Virus record (IMG/VR): IMGVR_UViG_2541047681_000005
Strand: one strand, 5' to 3'
From: a virus
Taxonomy: Duplodnaviria; Heunggongvirae; Uroviricota; Caudoviricetes
Length of the DNA stretch: 12,615 nt
The notes beneath the pieces were generated by a model. It was given only the letters and a program-made list of their open reading frames with translations, did no database searches and was not told the origin of the DNA. This document shows, piece by piece, positions 1,837 to 9,886 of this stretch. The position numbers were made by a program, and so were the translations under genes. Every line of letters begins with the position of its first letter. Positions within the stretch are counted from its first letter, which is position 1.

Positions 1837-2196
1837 ATGAATACTGGATATTCTCCCGAACAAGGGCGGGGCTTCGTTCGTCCTGAAAAACAGAATCTGC
1901 AAAATTTTGCCGAAATTATTCCGGTTATTTCCGGCCTTACTGGCGGGAGTGAAACCAATATTGTTAACGCCAGAGCGTTGCAGATGTTTGATGATAAAAA
2001 GGGAGTAAATTTAACTTACACCCCTGACGGCAATCAGAATATGAGCATTATCTCTGAGTCAGGTTTCTACAAACTAATAAAAACAAAAAGCGCCCCGTTG
2101 CCGGAGCGCCTTTGTGAACAATTAACCTACTGCGCAAAAAATGAATCTGAGCAGTGGGATTATATCAACCATGTGGAGAAGCGCCACAATTGCCGA
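1837..2196 (+). pseudogene. Possible decayed Bro-N/antirepressor-like remnant (N-terminal part of a 428-aa composite ORF)
   Basis: The first ~115 aa (DGNQNMSIISESGFYKLIKTKSAPLPERL) weakly resemble the Bro-N/KilA-N motif (ESGLYSLI...). The remainder of ORF 1837..3123 is Cys/Arg/Ser-rich and low in complexity, crosses a divergent promoter region and overlaps a better-supported minus-strand gene, so the long ORF is not one real protein. Confidence 0.25.
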
Positions 2197-2543
2197 ATAA
2201 CGGGCAAAACAAAGGCCACCCGCTACGGTGGCCCCTCGACACAAGCTACACGTTATCCCCAACGCATGAGCATTGCCAACAATGCCACATTTGCGGCTGG
2301 TGGGCAATGCAATCAGTCTGGTTCAGTTCGTTGCCATACCTGCAATGAGCGCTTTTCCCTGTACTCTTTAAGGAATTGCTCAAGGGCAAAAGCACATGGC
2401 GCGAATCTTTCTGATTCATGCTCTATCTTTCTGCGCCGTCTTTTCCGTGCCGGTGATAATGTTTTGGTCAATTCTTTATCGGTCATTGTGTTGTCCTGCA
2501 TAGCAATGCGCCGTAGTTACTCACACCACGGCGCTGGTGATGG

Positions 2544-2723
2544 TTACTCCTGCTCTTTGGCCTTGCGGCGCTGGCGGCGTTTGATTTCGCCGCGCATGGC
2601 TGCGTTTATAAACTGTCCCGTGCTTTCGCCTTCTTCTTTCACGTTCTCCATGCCTTCAATAATTTCATGGGCAATACGTGCAGTTACAGATTGTGATTTT
2701 GCATTCTTTGGACCCGTTGCCAT
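2544..2723 (-). CDS. Hypothetical small basic protein (59 aa), divergently transcribed from the left operon
   Basis: Internal ATG at 2721..2723 (complement) preceded by RBS GAGGGG with 6-nt spacing; product MATGPKNAKSQ...EIKRRQRRKAKEQE. Candidate -35/-10 (TTCAAA/TATATT) on the minus strand, overlapped by operator-like repeats. Family not recognised. Confidence 0.45.
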   Translation of the reverse strand: MATGPKNAKSQSVTARIAHEIIEGMENVKEEGESTGQFINAAMRGEIKRRQRRKAKEQE

Positions 2724-2744
2724 GTTTAACCCCTCATGTTTTTG

Positions 2745-2826
2745 GTGTAAGACAATATACACGAAAAAAAAATATTTTGAAGGGTTGACGTGTAAGACAC
2801 CATTGTTTTACATTGTGTCTTACACC
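2745..2826. promoter_or_regulatory. Divergent promoter region with three copies of an 11-bp operator-like motif GTGTAAGACAC
   Basis: Motif at 2745..2755 and 2790..2800 (direct) and 2815..2825 (inverted). Candidate + strand promoter -35 TTGACG (2785..2790) and -10 TTACAT (2808..2813), 17-bp spacer; one operator copy sits in the spacer and the inverted copy at the predicted +1. Candidate minus-strand promoter overlaps the first copy. Confidence 0.55.
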
Positions 2827-2922
2827 TTATTGATGAAAGGCACAGAAACGACGAAACCCCGCACTGTAGGAGCAGTAACGGGGCTTCTAACCACCAACGA
2901 TAGCAACAGTATCGAGGTAGCT

Positions 2923-3123
2923 ATGAGAAATCATACCACACACCCGAAAGGGCGGGACTCGCACAACCTGAATAAATACATCTGGCGTTTTATCGCCCTG
3001 AGCACGGCACAACCGCGCGTGATTACCATTGAGGCCACCAGCGAACAGGAAGCACGCCAGCAATCTCCGGCTGGCTGCGTGATGGTATTTGCTGCCCGTA
3101 TTCGTCAGGGGGTAGGCTTATGA
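2923..3123 (+). CDS. Small protein (66 aa), first gene of the left operon; possibly Icd-like, otherwise hypothetical
   Basis: ATG at 2923 with RBS GAGGT upstream; product MRNHTTHPKGRDSHNLNKYIWRFIALSTAQPRVITIEATSEQEARQQ.... Its stop overlaps the next ATG (ATGA). The Icd-like assignment is a recollection of P4-like prophage annotations and is unverified. Confidence 0.45.
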   Translation: MRNHTTHPKGRDSHNLNKYIWRFIALSTAQPRVITIEATSEQEARQQSPAGCVMVFAARIRQGVGL

Positions 3124-3795: not shown

Positions 3796-4095
3796 ATGAA
3801 ACTTAAATATTCTGGCTTAACTGCCAGTGGCAAAACTCGCACTAAATTCATGCGCGGTGATATTTACCGCGACCAGTACGGCGGCACGGTAATGATTAAG
3901 GGCGTGGAGGAACGGCGCGTAACCTACCGTCGTGAAGGCTACGAATATGATTGCGTGATGCCTGTTTATCAGTTCGATCGTGATTTTTCTCTGGTGCAGG
4001 CCGTACCGCGTAACGTGCCCACCAGCAGGGAGAAAGCACGCGCCAATATTCAGGAAATAAAAAAGATGCTTAACGTATTCAGGGGTAAGAAATGA
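3796..4095 (+). CDS. Hypothetical protein (99 aa)
   Basis: ATG at 3796 with RBS GGAGA 9 nt upstream; stop overlaps the primase start (ATGA). No family recognised. Confidence 0.55.
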   Translation: MKLKYSGLTASGKTRTKFMRGDIYRDQYGGTVMIKGVEERRVTYRREGYEYDCVMPVYQFDRDFSLVQAVPRNVPTSREKARANIQEIKKMLNVFRGKK

Positions 4096-5846
4096 AACTG
4101 GCACCGAACGTAAAAAAACAACCACGCGGAATAAAACACAAAGACACAGAGGTAATTATTTTCGCGGGTAGTGATGCGTGGTCACATGCAAAACAGTGGC
4201 AGGAGCAGGACGGCCCCGCATCCGGCGATAATGTGCCGCCTGTGTGGCTTGGGCCAAATCAGCTTGCCGAACTTGATGCGCTGAAAATTGTTCCGGATGG
4301 GAAAAAGCGCGTAAGGCTGTACCAGGCCGGAGAACTGGATTTAGTGGAGACCAAAAAGATTGGTCAGAAGCTGGCGGCGGCAGATATTCAGGACGCAAAT
4401 TTTTACCCTGATGGTATGCACGGTCAGAAGGTGGAGAACTGGCGCGAATATCTGGCCCGTGAGCGCCAGAATCTTTCTGATGGTCTGGTCATTGAGCTTC
4501 CGGTAAAGCAAAAGGCGCAACTTTCGCAGATGGCGGACAGTGAGCGCGCGCAGCTGCTTGCCGATCGCTTTGATGGCGTTTGCGTACATCCTGAAAGTGA
4601 AATCGTTCACGTATGGCGCGGCGGGGTATGGTGTCCGGTCAGCACAATGGAACTTAGCCGCGAAATGGTGGCGATCTATTCAGAGCACAGGGCCACTTTC
4701 AGCAAGCGCGTAATCAATAACGCCGTGGAAGCGTTAAAAGTTATTGCCGAACCAATGGGCGAGCCGTCCGGCGATTTGCTGCCGTTCGCCAATGGTGCGC
4801 TTGACCTGAAAACGGGGGAATTTTCCCCGCACACGCCGGAGAACTGGATCACCACGCACAACGGCATTGAGTACACGCCACCAGCACCAGGGGAGAACAT
4901 CCGCGATAACGCGCCAAACTTTCATAAATGGCTTAAGCACGCAGCCGGAAAAGACCCGCGCAAGATGATGCGTATATGTGCCGCGCTGTACATGATTATG
5001 GCGAACCGGTACGACTGGCAGATGTTTATTGAGGCCACCGGAGACGGCGGGAGCGGTAAAAGTACATTCACGCACATAGCCAGCCTTCTGGCAGGGAAAC
5101 AGAACACGGTAAGCGCTGAAATGACATCGCTTGATGATGCTGGTGGACGTGCGCAGGTTGTCGGGAGTCGTCTTATCGTCCTGGCTGACCAGCCGAAATA
5201 TACAGGCGAAGGAACGGGCATCAAGAAAATCACGGGCGGTGACCCCGTGGAAATTAACCCGAAATACGAAAAGCGTTTCACGGCTGTAATCAGGGCGGTG
5301 GTGCTGGCGACCAACAATAACCCGATGATATTCACCGAACGGGCCGGAGGTGTGGCACGTCGTCGCGTGATTTTCCGTTTCGACAATATCGTCAGTGAGG
5401 CCGAAAAAGACAGGGAGCTACCGGAAAAGATCGCGGCTGAAATCCCTGTCATTATCCGCCGATTGCTGGCGAACTTTACCGACCCTGAGAAGGCACGGGC
5501 TTTACTACTGGAACAGCGTGACGGTGATGAAGCACTGGCAATAAAGCAACAGACGGATCCGGTTATTGAGTTTTGCCAGTTCCTGAATTTTCTGGAGGAA
5601 GCGCGCGGCCTGATGATGGGGGGCGGTGGCGATTCAGTGAAGTACACGACCAGGAACAGCCTTTACCGCGTCTATCTGGCGTTTATGGCATACGCAGGCA
5701 GGAGCAAACCGCTAAACGTAAATGACTTTGGAAAGGCTATGAAGCCTGCCGCAAAAGTTTACGGACATGAATATATTACGCGGAAAGTTAAGGGGGTAAC
5801 GCAGACTAACGCAATAACAACAGACGAGTGCGACGCGTTTTTATAA
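4092..5846 (+). CDS. Replication primase/helicase, P4-alpha / D5-like family with P-loop NTPase domain
   Basis: 584-aa ORF with RBS AGGGG upstream; Walker A motif GDGGSGKST, followed by a hydrophobic strand (LIVLADQP) consistent with Walker B. Position after int-alpA and immediately before an iteron cluster matches satellite pri-rep genes. Confidence 0.9.
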   Translation: MKLAPNVKKQPRGIKHKDTEVIIFAGSDAWSHAKQWQEQDGPASGDNVPPVWLGPNQLAELDALKIVPDGKKRVRLYQAGELDLVETKKIGQKLAAADIQDANFYPDGMHGQKVENWREYLARERQNLSDGLVIELPVKQKAQLSQMADSERAQLLADRFDGVCVHPESEIVHVWRGGVWCPVSTMELSREMVAIYSEHRATFSKRVINNAVEALKVIAEPMGEPSGDLLPFANGALDLKTGEFSPHTPENWITTHNGIEYTPPAPGENIRDNAPNFHKWLKHAAGKDPRKMMRICAALYMIMANRYDWQMFIEATGDGGSGKSTFTHIASLLAGKQNTVSAEMTSLDDAGGRAQVVGSRLIVLADQPKYTGEGTGIKKITGGDPVEINPKYEKRFTAVIRAVVLATNNNPMIFTERAGGVARRRVIFRFDNIVSEAEKDRELPEKIAAEIPVIIRRLLANFTDPEKARALLLEQRDGDEALAIKQQTDPVIEFCQFLNFLEEARGLMMGGGGDSVKYTTRNSLYRVYLAFMAYAGRSKPLNVNDFGKAMKPAAKVYGHEYITRKVKGVTQTNAITTDECDAFL

Positions 5847-7247: not shown

Positions 7248-7454
7248 ATGGCTGAAGAGAAAAAAGGCGGTGTTTCGGTGTACATAAGCCCCGAAATCGT
7301 GGAGGTGCTCAAGCAGCGCCACAAAAAAAACTATGAGGCTGGCGTGGCGGCTGGACTGGATCCGCTGATGACGCCGGAGCCGTCGATAGGTTCACTTGTA
7401 CGCTCTTATTTACTTGCGGCGCTTGGGATGCATAAAAATTATGGGGGTGAATAA
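7248..7454 (+). CDS. Hypothetical protein (68 aa), translationally coupled to the major capsid gene
   Basis: ATG at 7248 with RBS AGAGGA; its stop TAA overlaps the capsid ATG (TAATG). No family recognised. Confidence 0.55.
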   Translation: MAEEKKGGVSVYISPEIVEVLKQRHKKNYEAGVAAGLDPLMTPEPSIGSLVRSYLLAALGMHKNYGGE

Positions 7455-8509
7455 TGGCAGGCAAAGCAACGGCACTTAACACTAACCAGCTTTTCATGTA
7501 CCTGAATCGCGGGGATATTGCGGATTTTAAATTCAGCCCTCTGTTTACTACGCTGTTTTTCCCGAACGTGGCGACATTCAGCACGCAAAACATCATGCTG
7601 GATACCCTGGACATTGAAGAAGTCACCATGTCGGCGTTTTGTTCGCCTATGGTGGGTAGCCAGGTTCAGCGCGATAAAGGGTACGAAACCAGCACGATTA
7701 AACCTGGCTACATGAAGCCAAAGCACGAAATCGATCCAACGAAAACCATCATGCGCATGGCTGGAGAAGATCCGGCACAGCTTAACGACCCTACCTATCG
7801 CCGTATGCGCCTGATTACTGGCAATATGCGCCGCCAGATAAACGCCATAAAAGCGCGCGTGGAATGGCTGGCGGTAAATGCGGTAACGACCGGAAAAAAC
7901 ATCATTGAGGGCGAAGGCATAGAGCGCTATGAAATCGACTGGAAGATACCGGAAAAAAACATCATAGAGCAGGCCGACGGGAAAAAATGGTCAGAGCAGG
8001 ACAAAGAAACCCACGATCCAATCTATGATATCGAACTATACGCCGATCAGGCTGGTTGCCCCGCAAACGTCATGATTATGGGCGCTGAGGTATGGCGAAC
8101 GTTACGCAGCTTTAAAAAATTCCGTGAGCTGTACGATCTTTCCCGTGGTTCAGAATCCGCCGCCGAACTGGCCTGTAAAAACCTGGGCGAAGTGGTGAGC
8201 TTTAAAGGCTATCTTGGTGATCTGGCCCTTATCGTCTATTCCGGCAAATACACTGACAGCGATGGTACCGAAAAATATTTCCTTGAGCCTGATTTGCTGG
8301 TCCTGGGCAACACCAACAATAAAGGGCTGGTGGCCTATGGTGCGATAATGGATCAGGAAGCGGTAAGAACGGGCGCAACACAAAACATGTTTTACCCGAA
8401 AAACTGGATTGAGGACGGCGATCCGGCGATTGAGTACGTGCAGACACACAGTGCACCGCAGCCGGTACCGGCAGATATTCGCAAATTTGTTACCGTCAAA
8501 ATTGGTTAA
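7454..8509 (+). CDS. Major capsid protein, lambda gpE family
   Basis: 351-aa product aligns by eye along its length with lambda gpE (341 aa): [163 protein letters not shown] upstream. Confidence 0.9.
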   Translation: [351 protein letters not shown]

Positions 8510-8521
8510 CGGGGGGATTCT

Positions 8522-8857
8522 ATGGACACTCCATACATTGAGTTATTTGCAGGCAGTCAGCAGGTCGCCACGACGCTGGTACATTTTGCCGCTGATGCTG
8601 GCGTTATTCAGGAATTTACCCCGCTGATGCTGGCAGACAATGGCGAGTTTAAGCCGTGGGATGGTCAGGAATCTGGCAAGGCTGTTTATCTGACCTCGTA
8701 CCCTGTGGACACGTCAAAGCAGAAATCAGCACAGTGTTACAAGACGGGGATTTTCAATATTGCCGCCGTTAACTGGCCTGAGAGCGTCGACACCGATGCG
8801 AAAAAATGCGCCGCCTTTGCGGGTTCTGGCGTATCCGTTCAGCCGCTGGCCCGATAA
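8522..8857 (+). CDS. Head decoration protein, lambda gpD family
   Basis: 111-aa product (lambda gpD is 110 aa) with TPLMLADNGEFKPWDG vs TPLMLDTSSRKLVAWDG and YKTGIFNIAAVNWPESVDTDAKKCAAFAGSGVSVQ vs [44 protein letters not shown] upstream. Order is capsid then decoration, the reverse of lambda (D then E). Confidence 0.85.
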   Translation: MDTPYIELFAGSQQVATTLVHFAADAGVIQEFTPLMLADNGEFKPWDGQESGKAVYLTSYPVDTSKQKSAQCYKTGIFNIAAVNWPESVDTDAKKCAAFAGSGVSVQPLAR

Positions 8858-8869
8858 GCAGGGGGAACG

Positions 8870-9283
8870 ATGGCAACGAATGAAAGCGTCATGACGCTAC
8901 CGCTGGCGAGTAAATTTAAAGCCGAAGCGCGGGCAATGGCTGACAGAGGTTTATCAACCTACGAGGCCGTATATCAACTCAACAAACTGGAAGAGCAGGA
9001 CAAGCCGCGCGCTGATGCGATTATGGCGCTTCATGAACATAACGACTATCAGCCGCTGTTACGTGCAATGGCAAACGTGCCATGTATTAGCGTCGATAAT
9101 GCTCGTGAAATCCTGAACATGACCATAGAGCAGGAGCGCCCAAAGGTTGCGCCGGAGCTTACCGCAGCCTTTGAAAACTTTATGGACATGCACAGCCCGA
9201 AAGCCGTATCACCCGGCATGGCATACGACGGCAGAAACCAGGGCGATGAAGGCGACGTCGATCGCATACTGAAAACCATCTGA
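8870..9283 (+). CDS. Hypothetical protein (137 aa), last gene before cos
   Basis: ATG at 8870 with RBS AGGGGGA; followed by a strong terminator. No clear similarity to lambda FI or other remembered head proteins. Confidence 0.6.
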   Translation: MATNESVMTLPLASKFKAEARAMADRGLSTYEAVYQLNKLEEQDKPRADAIMALHEHNDYQPLLRAMANVPCISVDNAREILNMTIEQERPKVAPELTAAFENFMDMHSPKAVSPGMAYDGRNQGDEGDVDRILKTI

Positions 9284-9289
9284 CATAAG

Positions 9290-9312
9290 GCCGGAGAAAT
9301 CCGGCTTTTTTT
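9290..9312 (+). terminator. Rho-independent terminator after the capsid operon
   Basis: Hairpin GCCGGA-GAAA-TCCGGC followed by seven T (9306..9312); near-identical to the hairpin at 6849..6870. Confidence 0.75.
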
Positions 9313-9445
9313 ACGGGTCCTTTCCGGCATATGGACCCGTTACGGGGCGGCGACCTCGCGGGTTTTCGCTATTTATGACGTTTTTCCGTGAAGGTGACAC
9401 CACCACCACTTGATTAATATTTAACCATGCGGTTAAGGTAACATT
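9313..9445 (+). other. Lambda-type cos site (cosQ-like, cosN, short cosB) upstream of the TerS-like gene
   Basis: TACGGGTCCTTTCCGG...GTTACG|GGGCGGCGACCTCGCGGGTTTTCGCTATTTATGA closely matches the lambda cohesive-end region as remembered. Predicted 12-nt cohesive end GGGCGGCGACCT at 9345..9356. One R-site-like element (CGTTTTTCCGTG, about 9381..9392) and an AT-rich stretch follow. Confidence 0.75.
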
Positions 9446-9886
9446 ATGATTGATAAAGCTTGTTTTGTAAGTCAGCAGGAAATAGCTGAACATTTCAAGG
9501 TTAACAGAACCACTATTCGCGCATGGACCAAACAGGGGATGCCGTATCTTAATGCGGATCGCGGAAAGTCTGGCGGTTATCACATCGGGCATACATTGCT
9601 TTGGTCTTCAGGTAAAAGCCGTCTTGAGGCCATCAGATATCACGTAGAAACCAGTGCGCTGGAAAAAATTATGTTTGCCAGGCTGCTTTCATCTGAGCGT
9701 GACGAGTACTCCAGTGAAGAAACAGAACATCGATTTGATGAAGGTTTGCAGATTTACGGCTATTCACCGGAAGATGTGAGCAAGGCACGAAATAAAATGG
9801 CTGGCTTTCTGGCTGGGTGGCGTCATGCCGTAAGCGTTCGCCGTGCCAGCATGGAACAATCAGTCGTTACAGAACAGCAAAGTTAA
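9446..9886 (+). CDS. Small terminase-like protein, lambda Nu1-type DNA-binding N-terminus with divergent C-terminus (TerS/Rpp-like)
   Basis: 146-aa ORF about 90 bp downstream of cosN, as Nu1 is in lambda. N-terminus QQEIAEHFKVNRTTIRAWTKQGMPYL aligns with Nu1 KKQLADIFGASIRTIQNWQEQGMPVL (winged HTH). Shorter than Nu1 (181 aa) and the C-terminal region does not resemble Nu1's. Confidence 0.7.
   Translation: MIDKACFVSQQEIAEHFKVNRTTIRAWTKQGMPYLNADRGKSGGYHIGHTLLWSSGKSRLEAIRYHVETSALEKIMFARLLSSERDEYSSEETEHRFDEGLQIYGYSPEDVSKARNKMAGFLAGWRHAVSVRRASMEQSVVTEQQS

Follow-up and report, generated by a model that had tools for sequence, protein, structure and literature searches.

We examined a 12,615-nucleotide stretch of DNA (the window; IMG/VR virus record IMGVR_UViG_2541047681_000005) that is an allelic variant of the Escherichia coli island EcCICFT073. 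Three copies of an 11-bp motif, two direct and one inverted, lie over the predicted back-to-back promoters of a leftward gene for a 59-residue protein of the YlcI/YnfO family (hereafter YlcI) and of a rightward operon that leads to the primase gene. We consider it likely that these repeats form a three-part operator of YlcI and that YlcI is an autoregulated ribbon-helix-helix (RHH) repressor of phage-inducible chromosomal islands (PICIs) of the EcCICFT073 type. The evidence that carries this reading comes from relatives of the locus, in which the central 5 bp of the motif change together with two residues of the predicted DNA-binding β-strand of YlcI. The features on which the argument turns are the following (PL and PR, the leftward and rightward promoters, were called by a consensus scan).

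2544-2723, minus strand (start at 2723): ylcI/ynfO-family gene, 59 residues, predicted RHH repressor.
2745-2755, plus strand: candidate operator site S1, GTGTAAGACAA (GTGTAAGACAa, with one mismatch, at the last base); the extended form gGTGTAAGACAa begins at 2744, plus strand.
2754-2781, minus strand: PL, predicted; -35 TTCAAA (2781-2776), 16-nt spacer, -10 TATATT (2759-2754).
2785-2814, plus strand: PR, predicted; -35 TTGACG (2785-2790), 18-nt spacer, -10 TACATT (2809-2814).
2790-2800, plus strand: candidate operator site S2, GTGTAAGACAC, exact.
2815-2825, minus strand: candidate operator site S3, GTGTAAGACAC inverted, exact; the minus-strand GGTG extends to 2826.
2923-3123, plus strand: Icd-like gene, 66 residues (NF033153, E = 1.4e-19), first gene of the rightward operon.

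S1, S2 and S3 are the sole matches to the motif with at most one mismatch in the window, where 0.15 are expected, and none of 200 dinucleotide-preserving shuffles of the window contained three or more such matches. With up to two mismatches allowed there are four matches against 2.08 expected, a count that is not significant alone, so the case for the repeats rests on their exactness and clustering. Comparison of the three copies indicates a repeat unit slightly longer than 11 bp (GGTG...CACC). S1 is the weakest match of the three, and GGTGTAAGACA is common to S1 and S3.

The sites are placed closely on the promoters. S2 begins at the last base of the PR -35 element and occupies the PR spacer, S3 begins right behind the PR -10 element and spans the expected +1 of PR, and S1 overlaps the PL -10 element and the expected +1 of ylcI. 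PR is predicted to drive the genes from the Icd-like gene through the primase gene, and PL to drive ylcI and a small open reading frame (ORF) behind it. The tract between S1 and S2 (2756-2789) is A-rich, with nine A at 2764-2772.

Homologues of YlcI were collected and 51 loci were fetched from many genera of Enterobacterales, giving an analysis set of 52 loci, within which 49 distinct loci were used for site statistics. The layout is kept in 52 loci of other genomes, in 10 further E. coli loci and in 77 analysable IMG/VR loci (~140 in total). An earlier reading of this DNA made without database searches (the sequence-only reading) had described three 11-bp repeats, two direct and one inverted, over the back-to-back promoters of the 59-residue protein and the primase-leading operon, and had held that absence of the motif from homologous islands would count against a switch; exact positions, the shuffles, the promoter scan and now the relatives bear this description out.

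In nearly all of the 52 loci S1 begins 21 nt from the ylcI ATG and abuts a TATACT -10 element. S2 follows S1 at 45 ± 1 bp, with very few exceptions, right behind TTGA(C/A)G, and S3 begins either 22-26 bp or ~35 bp beyond S2. The PR -35 element is TTGAC/AG in nearly all loci and the -10 element fits TAnnnT, with a spacer of 17 nt in 36 loci and 18 nt in 14; the PL -10 element is TATACT in 36 of 51. The fixed S1-S2 spacing, seen across genera, may reflect DNA bending, looping or activation of PL from S2. In the TTCAA-type allele (NCTC86-type; L053, positions 3960-4030, and L062) the PL-side site is ~50 nt away from the ylcI start and immediately to the left of the PR -35 element, so the operator layout is not entirely fixed.

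Across relatives the generic site is (G)GTG-N5-CA(C)(C), with nearly invariant flanks and an N5 core that changes jointly at the three sites. Core identity is 4.53 of 5 positions within a locus and 1.60 of 5 between types. The 49 distinct loci contain 15 core types, and the E. coli and IMG/VR loci add at least two more, which brings the number to at least 17. S1 is the poorest match here as well, departing from the consensus of its own locus in 44 of the 49. The orientation of S3 varies, being inverted in 28 loci and direct in 21; this rules out a conserved hairpin and suggests that each site is recognised on its own.

YlcI has the features expected of a protein that could read such sites. It matches the NCBIfam model NF041551 (YlcI/YnfO) over residues 9-50 with 64.8 bits (cut-off 30; E = 5.2e-18), and RefSeq labels an identical gene YlcI/YnfO family protein. 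The predicted fold comprises a β-strand at about residues 9-17 (KSQSVTARI), a helix (19-28), a G32-E33-S34 loop, a second helix (35-58) and a basic tail, which is the β-strand, helix, helix arrangement of ~45 residues that defines the RHH superfamily. RHH proteins are obligate dimers that build a two-stranded antiparallel sheet, and in the monomer model of YlcI the N-terminal segment is extended and unpaired, as expected for a single RHH chain. Between the helices of RHH proteins, a G-X-S/T/N turn anchors the second helix to the DNA backbone; the corresponding turn in YlcI is G32-E33-S34, with E33 and S34 invariant and G32 at least 90% conserved among 91 sequences.

Position by position, N7, S10 and R16 are invariant and residues 12 and 14 are variable. 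An hhalign comparison placed S12, T14 and R16 on Q9, N11 and R13 of Arc, with a probability of 8.6%, an alignment that is weak alone. Q9, N11 and R13 of Arc contact bases in the Arc-operator complex; Gln9 and Asn11 are the two for which such contacts were reportedly described by Raumann et al. (1994). Base reading by alternate side chains of the β-strand, the RHH mode, is what the evidence for YlcI suggests, that evidence being comparative. The sequence-only reading had seen no classical helix-turn-helix (HTH) repressor in this DNA. That is right insofar as the 59-residue protein is predicted to be an RHH rather than an HTH DNA-binding protein, but a repressor candidate does exist. YnfO of E. 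coli K-12 (Qin prophage) was considered as a model and set aside: it is a distant RHH-like relative, encoded divergently from nohA and lacking a comparable three-site set, and is therefore uninformative on the switch in the window.

The link between protein and sites was assessed by comparing operator-core distances with distances in neighbouring sequences (Mantel tests and partial correlations). Residues 9-17 of YlcI follow the core with a Mantel r of 0.75. Controlling for the rest of the protein leaves a partial r of 0.65, controlling for the intergenic DNA outside the operators leaves 0.72, and controlling for residues 1-8 leaves 0.68. The reverse test, of residues 1-8 given residues 9-17, gives a non-significant partial r of 0.08. 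Compared with the β-strand codons, those of residues 1-8 and the intergenic DNA are nearer to the operators and yet correlate less, so the signal is more than linkage alone would produce. For residues 12 and 14 by themselves r is 0.82, and they rank first among 53 positions for information on the core. When residues 11, 12 and 14 are taken as a key, the relation of residues to core is nearly one to one:

Q-S-T: core TAAGA.
Q-M-T: core TATTT.
Q-A/S-K: core GGCCA.
Q-K-Q: core GAGTC or GAATC.
Q-Q-N: core CGATT.
L-Q-S: core GTGTT.
Q-Q-V: core GCATG.
K-R-D: core TCCGA.
K/R-K-E: core GCTGA.
TQA: core GTTAG or CTAAG (further types, from the IMG/VR and E. coli loci).
QTA: core TTCAA (further type, from the IMG/VR and E. 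coli loci).

The map from residues to core was learnt on the 52 loci and then applied to new ones. Eight of the ten additional E. coli loci had a known key, and the map gave the right core in all of them; among 80 IMG/VR loci it did so in each of the 46 distinct new ones whose key was known. These prediction sets span 61-100% protein identity and are not phylogenetically independent.

Of the other ways to account for the repeats, the one that fares best grants that YlcI binds them and holds that the cassette is toxin-antitoxin-like or purely autoregulatory, not the master switch of the island; YlcI, as an RHH antitoxin-like protein, and the small ORF behind its gene would then control just their own promoter. 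We regard this as improbable. The ORF behind ylcI, probably co-transcribed with it, encodes 57 residues (2313-2486, minus strand) and is annotated in CFT073 and other E. coli islands, where its protein alignment shows an invariant EHE..RFAPCAF..FLK.Y. It matches no known toxin family, having been scanned in a slightly longer 62-residue reading (2313-2501), which has no Pfam or NCBIfam match. Apart from the E. coli island L001, the ORF was not found in the 51 loci of other genera. Furthermore, two of the three sites, the best-conserved ones, lie on PR and not on PL. The locus therefore has neither the known toxin neighbour nor the restriction of operators to the module's own promoter that mark type II toxin-antitoxin modules with an RHH antitoxin. 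The 57-residue protein was also considered as a binder in its own right and rejected: it is confined to Escherichia and is 100% identical in the window and CFT073 despite their differing cores.

A second alternative, which we judge very unlikely, is that the Icd-like protein binds the repeats as a Cro-like regulator. Its gene adjoins the sites in 49 of the 52 loci, and the protein matches phrog_6196 and phrog_1743, for which the PHROGs label is 'transcriptional repressor', an annotation rather than a tested function. Icd-like sequence is nevertheless uncorrelated with the core (Mantel r = 0.008, p = 0.39; partial r = -0.06), and on this evidence it was rejected as the reader of the core. In Pectobacterium and Samsonia three different cores are found next to genes for nearly identical Icd-like proteins, unrelated Icd-like types can share one core, and YlcI and its sites occur without an Icd-like first gene in three loci. 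The Icd-like protein could still recognise the invariant flanks.

We give equally little credence to AlpA or a helper-phage protein as the factor that recognises the repeats. Both had been named as candidates in the sequence-only reading, alongside the 59-residue protein; it is the residues of the last that covary with the core. An identical AlpA (WP_000953274.1) occurs with four cores, TAAGA in the window, GGCCA in CFT073, TTCAA in NCTC86 and GCTGA in strain A36, and in ~20 of the 52 site-bearing loci no AlpA was detected within 3 kb. Nor would a helper factor account for the way the core follows two residues of a protein of the island itself.

Scarcely credible is the notion that the repeats are not protein sites at all, being instead an S2-S3 hairpin or terminator, chance repeats or replication iterons: S2 and S3 do form 14-nt arms, 93% complementary around an 8-nt loop, in the window, but the direct orientation of S3 in so many relatives goes against a hairpin, S2 lies upstream of the predicted start and would thus not be transcribed from PR, the shuffles exclude chance, and replication in this island family starts from an origin downstream of pri (PMC6092414, PMC10111431).

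Several observations weigh against YlcI as the repressor that binds the three sites. The covarying sequences are physically adjacent, so that linkage inflates their covariation, a concern that the partial tests and the prediction sets lessen and do not remove; many of the validation loci are closely related to one another. A site of 11-13 bp is long for a single RHH dimer. The PL -35 element, as read from the sequences, is poor in most relatives, and regulation of PL may therefore exceed simple autorepression. Overexpression of AlpA alone induces excision and replication of EcCICFT073, and the published model needs no repressor (PMC6092414); a repressor of PR would thus not suffice to keep the island uninduced after AlpA has been produced. 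Finally, the evidence for the role of YlcI consists of comparison and structure prediction.

From these data we infer binding, repression as its sign, the stoichiometry and the route of induction as follows. The symmetric flanks of each site would be read by the invariant N7, S10 and R16 together with the conserved N-terminal arm, and the 5-bp core by the β-strand residues 12 and 14. YlcI at S2 and S3 would occlude RNA polymerase at PR and so keep the operon from the Icd-like gene to the primase gene silent in the resting island. The weaker S1, over the PL -10 element and +1, would add negative autoregulation at higher levels of YlcI. As for induction, the option that is simplest with the AlpA data is that rightward transcription from the alpA promoter, convergent to ylcI, would run through the switch into the replication operon; alternatively, a helper protein (an antirepressor) may inactivate YlcI. 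Repressor and operators would have diversified together into at least 17 immunity-like specificities, exchanged as a cassette of ~300 bp.

The arrangement has two hallmarks of the immunity switches of temperate elements, such as those of lambda CI and Stl. First, ylcI, the proposed repressor gene, is transcribed away from the replication operon, with several candidate operators over both promoters. Second, protein and sites have co-diversified, each core type being tied to its own β-strand residues. A three-way alignment of the window, EcCICFT073 (L054) and NCTC86 (L053) shows identical flanks around a sharply bounded divergent cassette, which looks like the result of immunity-cassette exchange. 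The putative exchangeable specificity cassette occupies approximately 2587-2881 (~300 bp); it encodes YlcI residues 1 to ~45 and carries, besides all three operators, the two promoters and the leader hairpin.

In genomes that carry two loci the cores differ between the two in eight of eight cases (L004/L027, L024/L036, L020/L045, L039/L046, L030/L047, L013/L051, L028/L052 and L026/L042), as expected of heteroimmune elements; the count is not significant alone, with a chance of ~0.2 at the observed type frequencies (a rough estimate). DNA resembling ylcI and its operators is present in 801 of 5426 complete E. coli genomes. Close relatives of YlcI occur in chromosomal islands and in IMG/VR contigs, many of which are satellite-like in size (6-16 kb), and a tblastn search of YlcI against 50,697 deposited phage genomes gave no match.

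The island in the window lies between roxA and phoQ, as EcCICFT073 does in CFT073, and most of its length has 91-97% nucleotide identity to CFT073. An ST131 strain carries a 99.5% identical copy, again between roxA and phoQ. EcCICFT073 is the prototype Gram-negative PICI, and helper-dependent induction, replication and transfer have been demonstrated for EcCICFT073, not for this allele (PMC6092414). The remaining principal genes of the window are as follows.

1-1230: integrase gene.
1596-1784: alpA.
4092-5846: primase gene, D5/P4-type.
7454-8509: major head gene, lambda-E-like.
8522-8857: head-decoration gene, D-like.
9446-9886: TerS-like gene.

Further genes are a Bro-N remnant, three small ORFs, a DUF4222 gene, an SSB gene and a scaffold-like gene, with phoQ past the island end. 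The late region (7454-9886) includes a protein resembling the C-terminus of a head protease/scaffold, and its gene set is as in EcCICFT073. Gene order and attachment site are those of the EcCICFT073 type, in agreement with the view of the sequence-only reading that the element is a phage satellite. Its P4 wording ('left operon') is no more than an analogy for an island that is EcCICFT073-type and not P4-like, and no antirepressor was found to match the one its switch invoked; the adjacent Bro-N gene is a remnant.

A 428-residue open frame (1837-3123, plus strand) passes through ylcI in antisense, crosses both promoters and continues into the Icd-like gene; we dismissed it as a mechanical artefact. 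Only its first ~100 codons resemble Bro-N (E = 0.014), and its counterpart in NCTC86 is a truncated BRO-N pseudogene in RefSeq. The frame stays open, and PGAP consequently calls N-terminally extended Icd-like proteins in some genomes (L060, L062).

Between S3 and the start codon of the Icd-like gene lies a strongly conserved leader, which suggests a further regulator, a cis-antisense RNA over the Icd-like ribosome-binding site, which we report with lower confidence, as a lead rather than a finding. Its elements are these:

2845-2938, minus strand: candidate cis-antisense small RNA, opposite the Icd-like leader.
2938-2930, minus strand: extended -10 element TGgTATGAT, read from the sequence only, which would start the RNA at the Icd-like start codon.
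2914-2898, minus strand: 5' hairpin, opposite the ribosome-binding region.
2887-2853, minus strand: terminator-like hairpin, followed by a T-rich tract.

Both hairpins covary among 45 relatives. Non-standard pairs on the sense strand comprise ~70 A-C or C-A pairs and 1 G-T pair, an excess with which a structured minus-strand RNA fits. The minus strand of the relatives aligns with the full SymR model (RF01809), the best score being 45.4 bits (L051) against a gathering score of 61. In the window, Rfam scans at E ≤ 1 over the whole and at E ≤ 10 over 2700-3100 yielded no credible family: there was no match to SymR and no covariance-model match to the immunity RNAs P1 C4, P4 CI and IsrK. The candidate resembles the symE/SymR pair of E. 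coli in its antisense strand and, in the relatives, in its two hairpins, one at the 5' end over the ribosome-binding site and one at the terminator; it differs in its sub-threshold scores, in the lack of a match in the window and in the regulated gene, which is Icd-like here and not SymE. In the Pectobacterium locus L045 (847-913) there is a confident match to the Rfam family 'int-alpA RNA' (RF02996; 60.9 bits against 35.8), for which the Rfam scan found no match in the window.

The proposed switch shares parts of its design with several known systems and coincides with none of them. Like the Arc/Mnt module of P22 immI (Pant/Pmnt), it works on divergent promoters. There is no significant sequence homology between YlcI and Arc or Mnt, as the hhalign probability illustrates, and YlcI cannot be placed in their family. 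Arc and Mnt each bind one palindromic operator of ~17-21 bp as a tetramer, whereas here three separate sites of 11-13 bp, with fixed flanks and a variable core, are spread over 80 bp; the controlled operon is that of satellite replication and not, as in P22 immI, an antirepressor gene. The omega repressor of the inc18 plasmid pSM19035 binds contiguous arrays of 7-bp heptads cooperatively. With omega, YlcI would share a tolerance of either site orientation, but its sites, each of 11-13 bp, are spaced at 22-45 bp.

The layout is also that of lambda OR (PRM/PR), with three graded sites between divergent promoters, a repressor gene on one side and a lytic or replication operon on the other, and the co-diversification of repressor and operator and the exchange of cassettes between similar elements recall the heteroimmune lambdoid repressors. 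Unlike the lambda repressor, YlcI would be an RHH and not an HTH protein, and neither a cleavable C-terminal domain nor a counterpart of Cro is apparent. In Gram-positive PICIs control rests with a master repressor, which is inactivated by proteins of the helper phage. The Stl/Rpr repressors of these islands and of the Staphylococcus aureus pathogenicity islands (SaPIs) are likewise encoded between the integration and replication modules, divergently from the replication operon, and by analogy the functional role of YlcI would be alike. Stl proteins differ in being larger HTH proteins that are inactivated by binding of a helper-phage protein.

For Gram-negative PICIs, the global repressor has been called unclear (PMC6092414). 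A 'Bro zone' survey mentions immunity RNAs, not YlcI (PMC10111431), and in a survey of 2026 YlcI/YnfO figures solely as an accessory 'prophage-associated protein' (PMC13612085). In the full-text literature we found no functional study on YlcI, YnfO, DUF3950, a PICI ribbon-helix-helix protein or an EcCICFT073/cf-PICI repressor. The window would thus hold a switch of familiar type, built from a family without known function, in a class of elements thought to lack a repressor.

We put forward a broader proposal tentatively, as one that could well fail in one or more of its parts. In it, RHH proteins of the YlcI/YnfO family would be unreported master repressors of Gram-negative PICIs, EcCICFT073 included. 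Residues 12 and 14 would constitute a swappable code for the 5-bp core, with at least 17 heteroimmune types; induction by the helper would override or inactivate the repressor, and the SymR-like antisense RNA would act as a second lock, on the first gene of the operon.

If YlcI is indeed the repressor that binds the operators, the model island EcCICFT073 is under a second level of control, so far overlooked and open to direct testing, and the YlcI/YnfO family gains a function. The nearly one-to-one pairing of two residues with a 5-bp core would amount to a compact natural set of orthogonal repressor-operator pairs, usable in synthetic circuits and in engineered PICI delivery vehicles. The islands themselves would fall into immunity-like groups, which may govern the coexistence of satellites or their superinfection.

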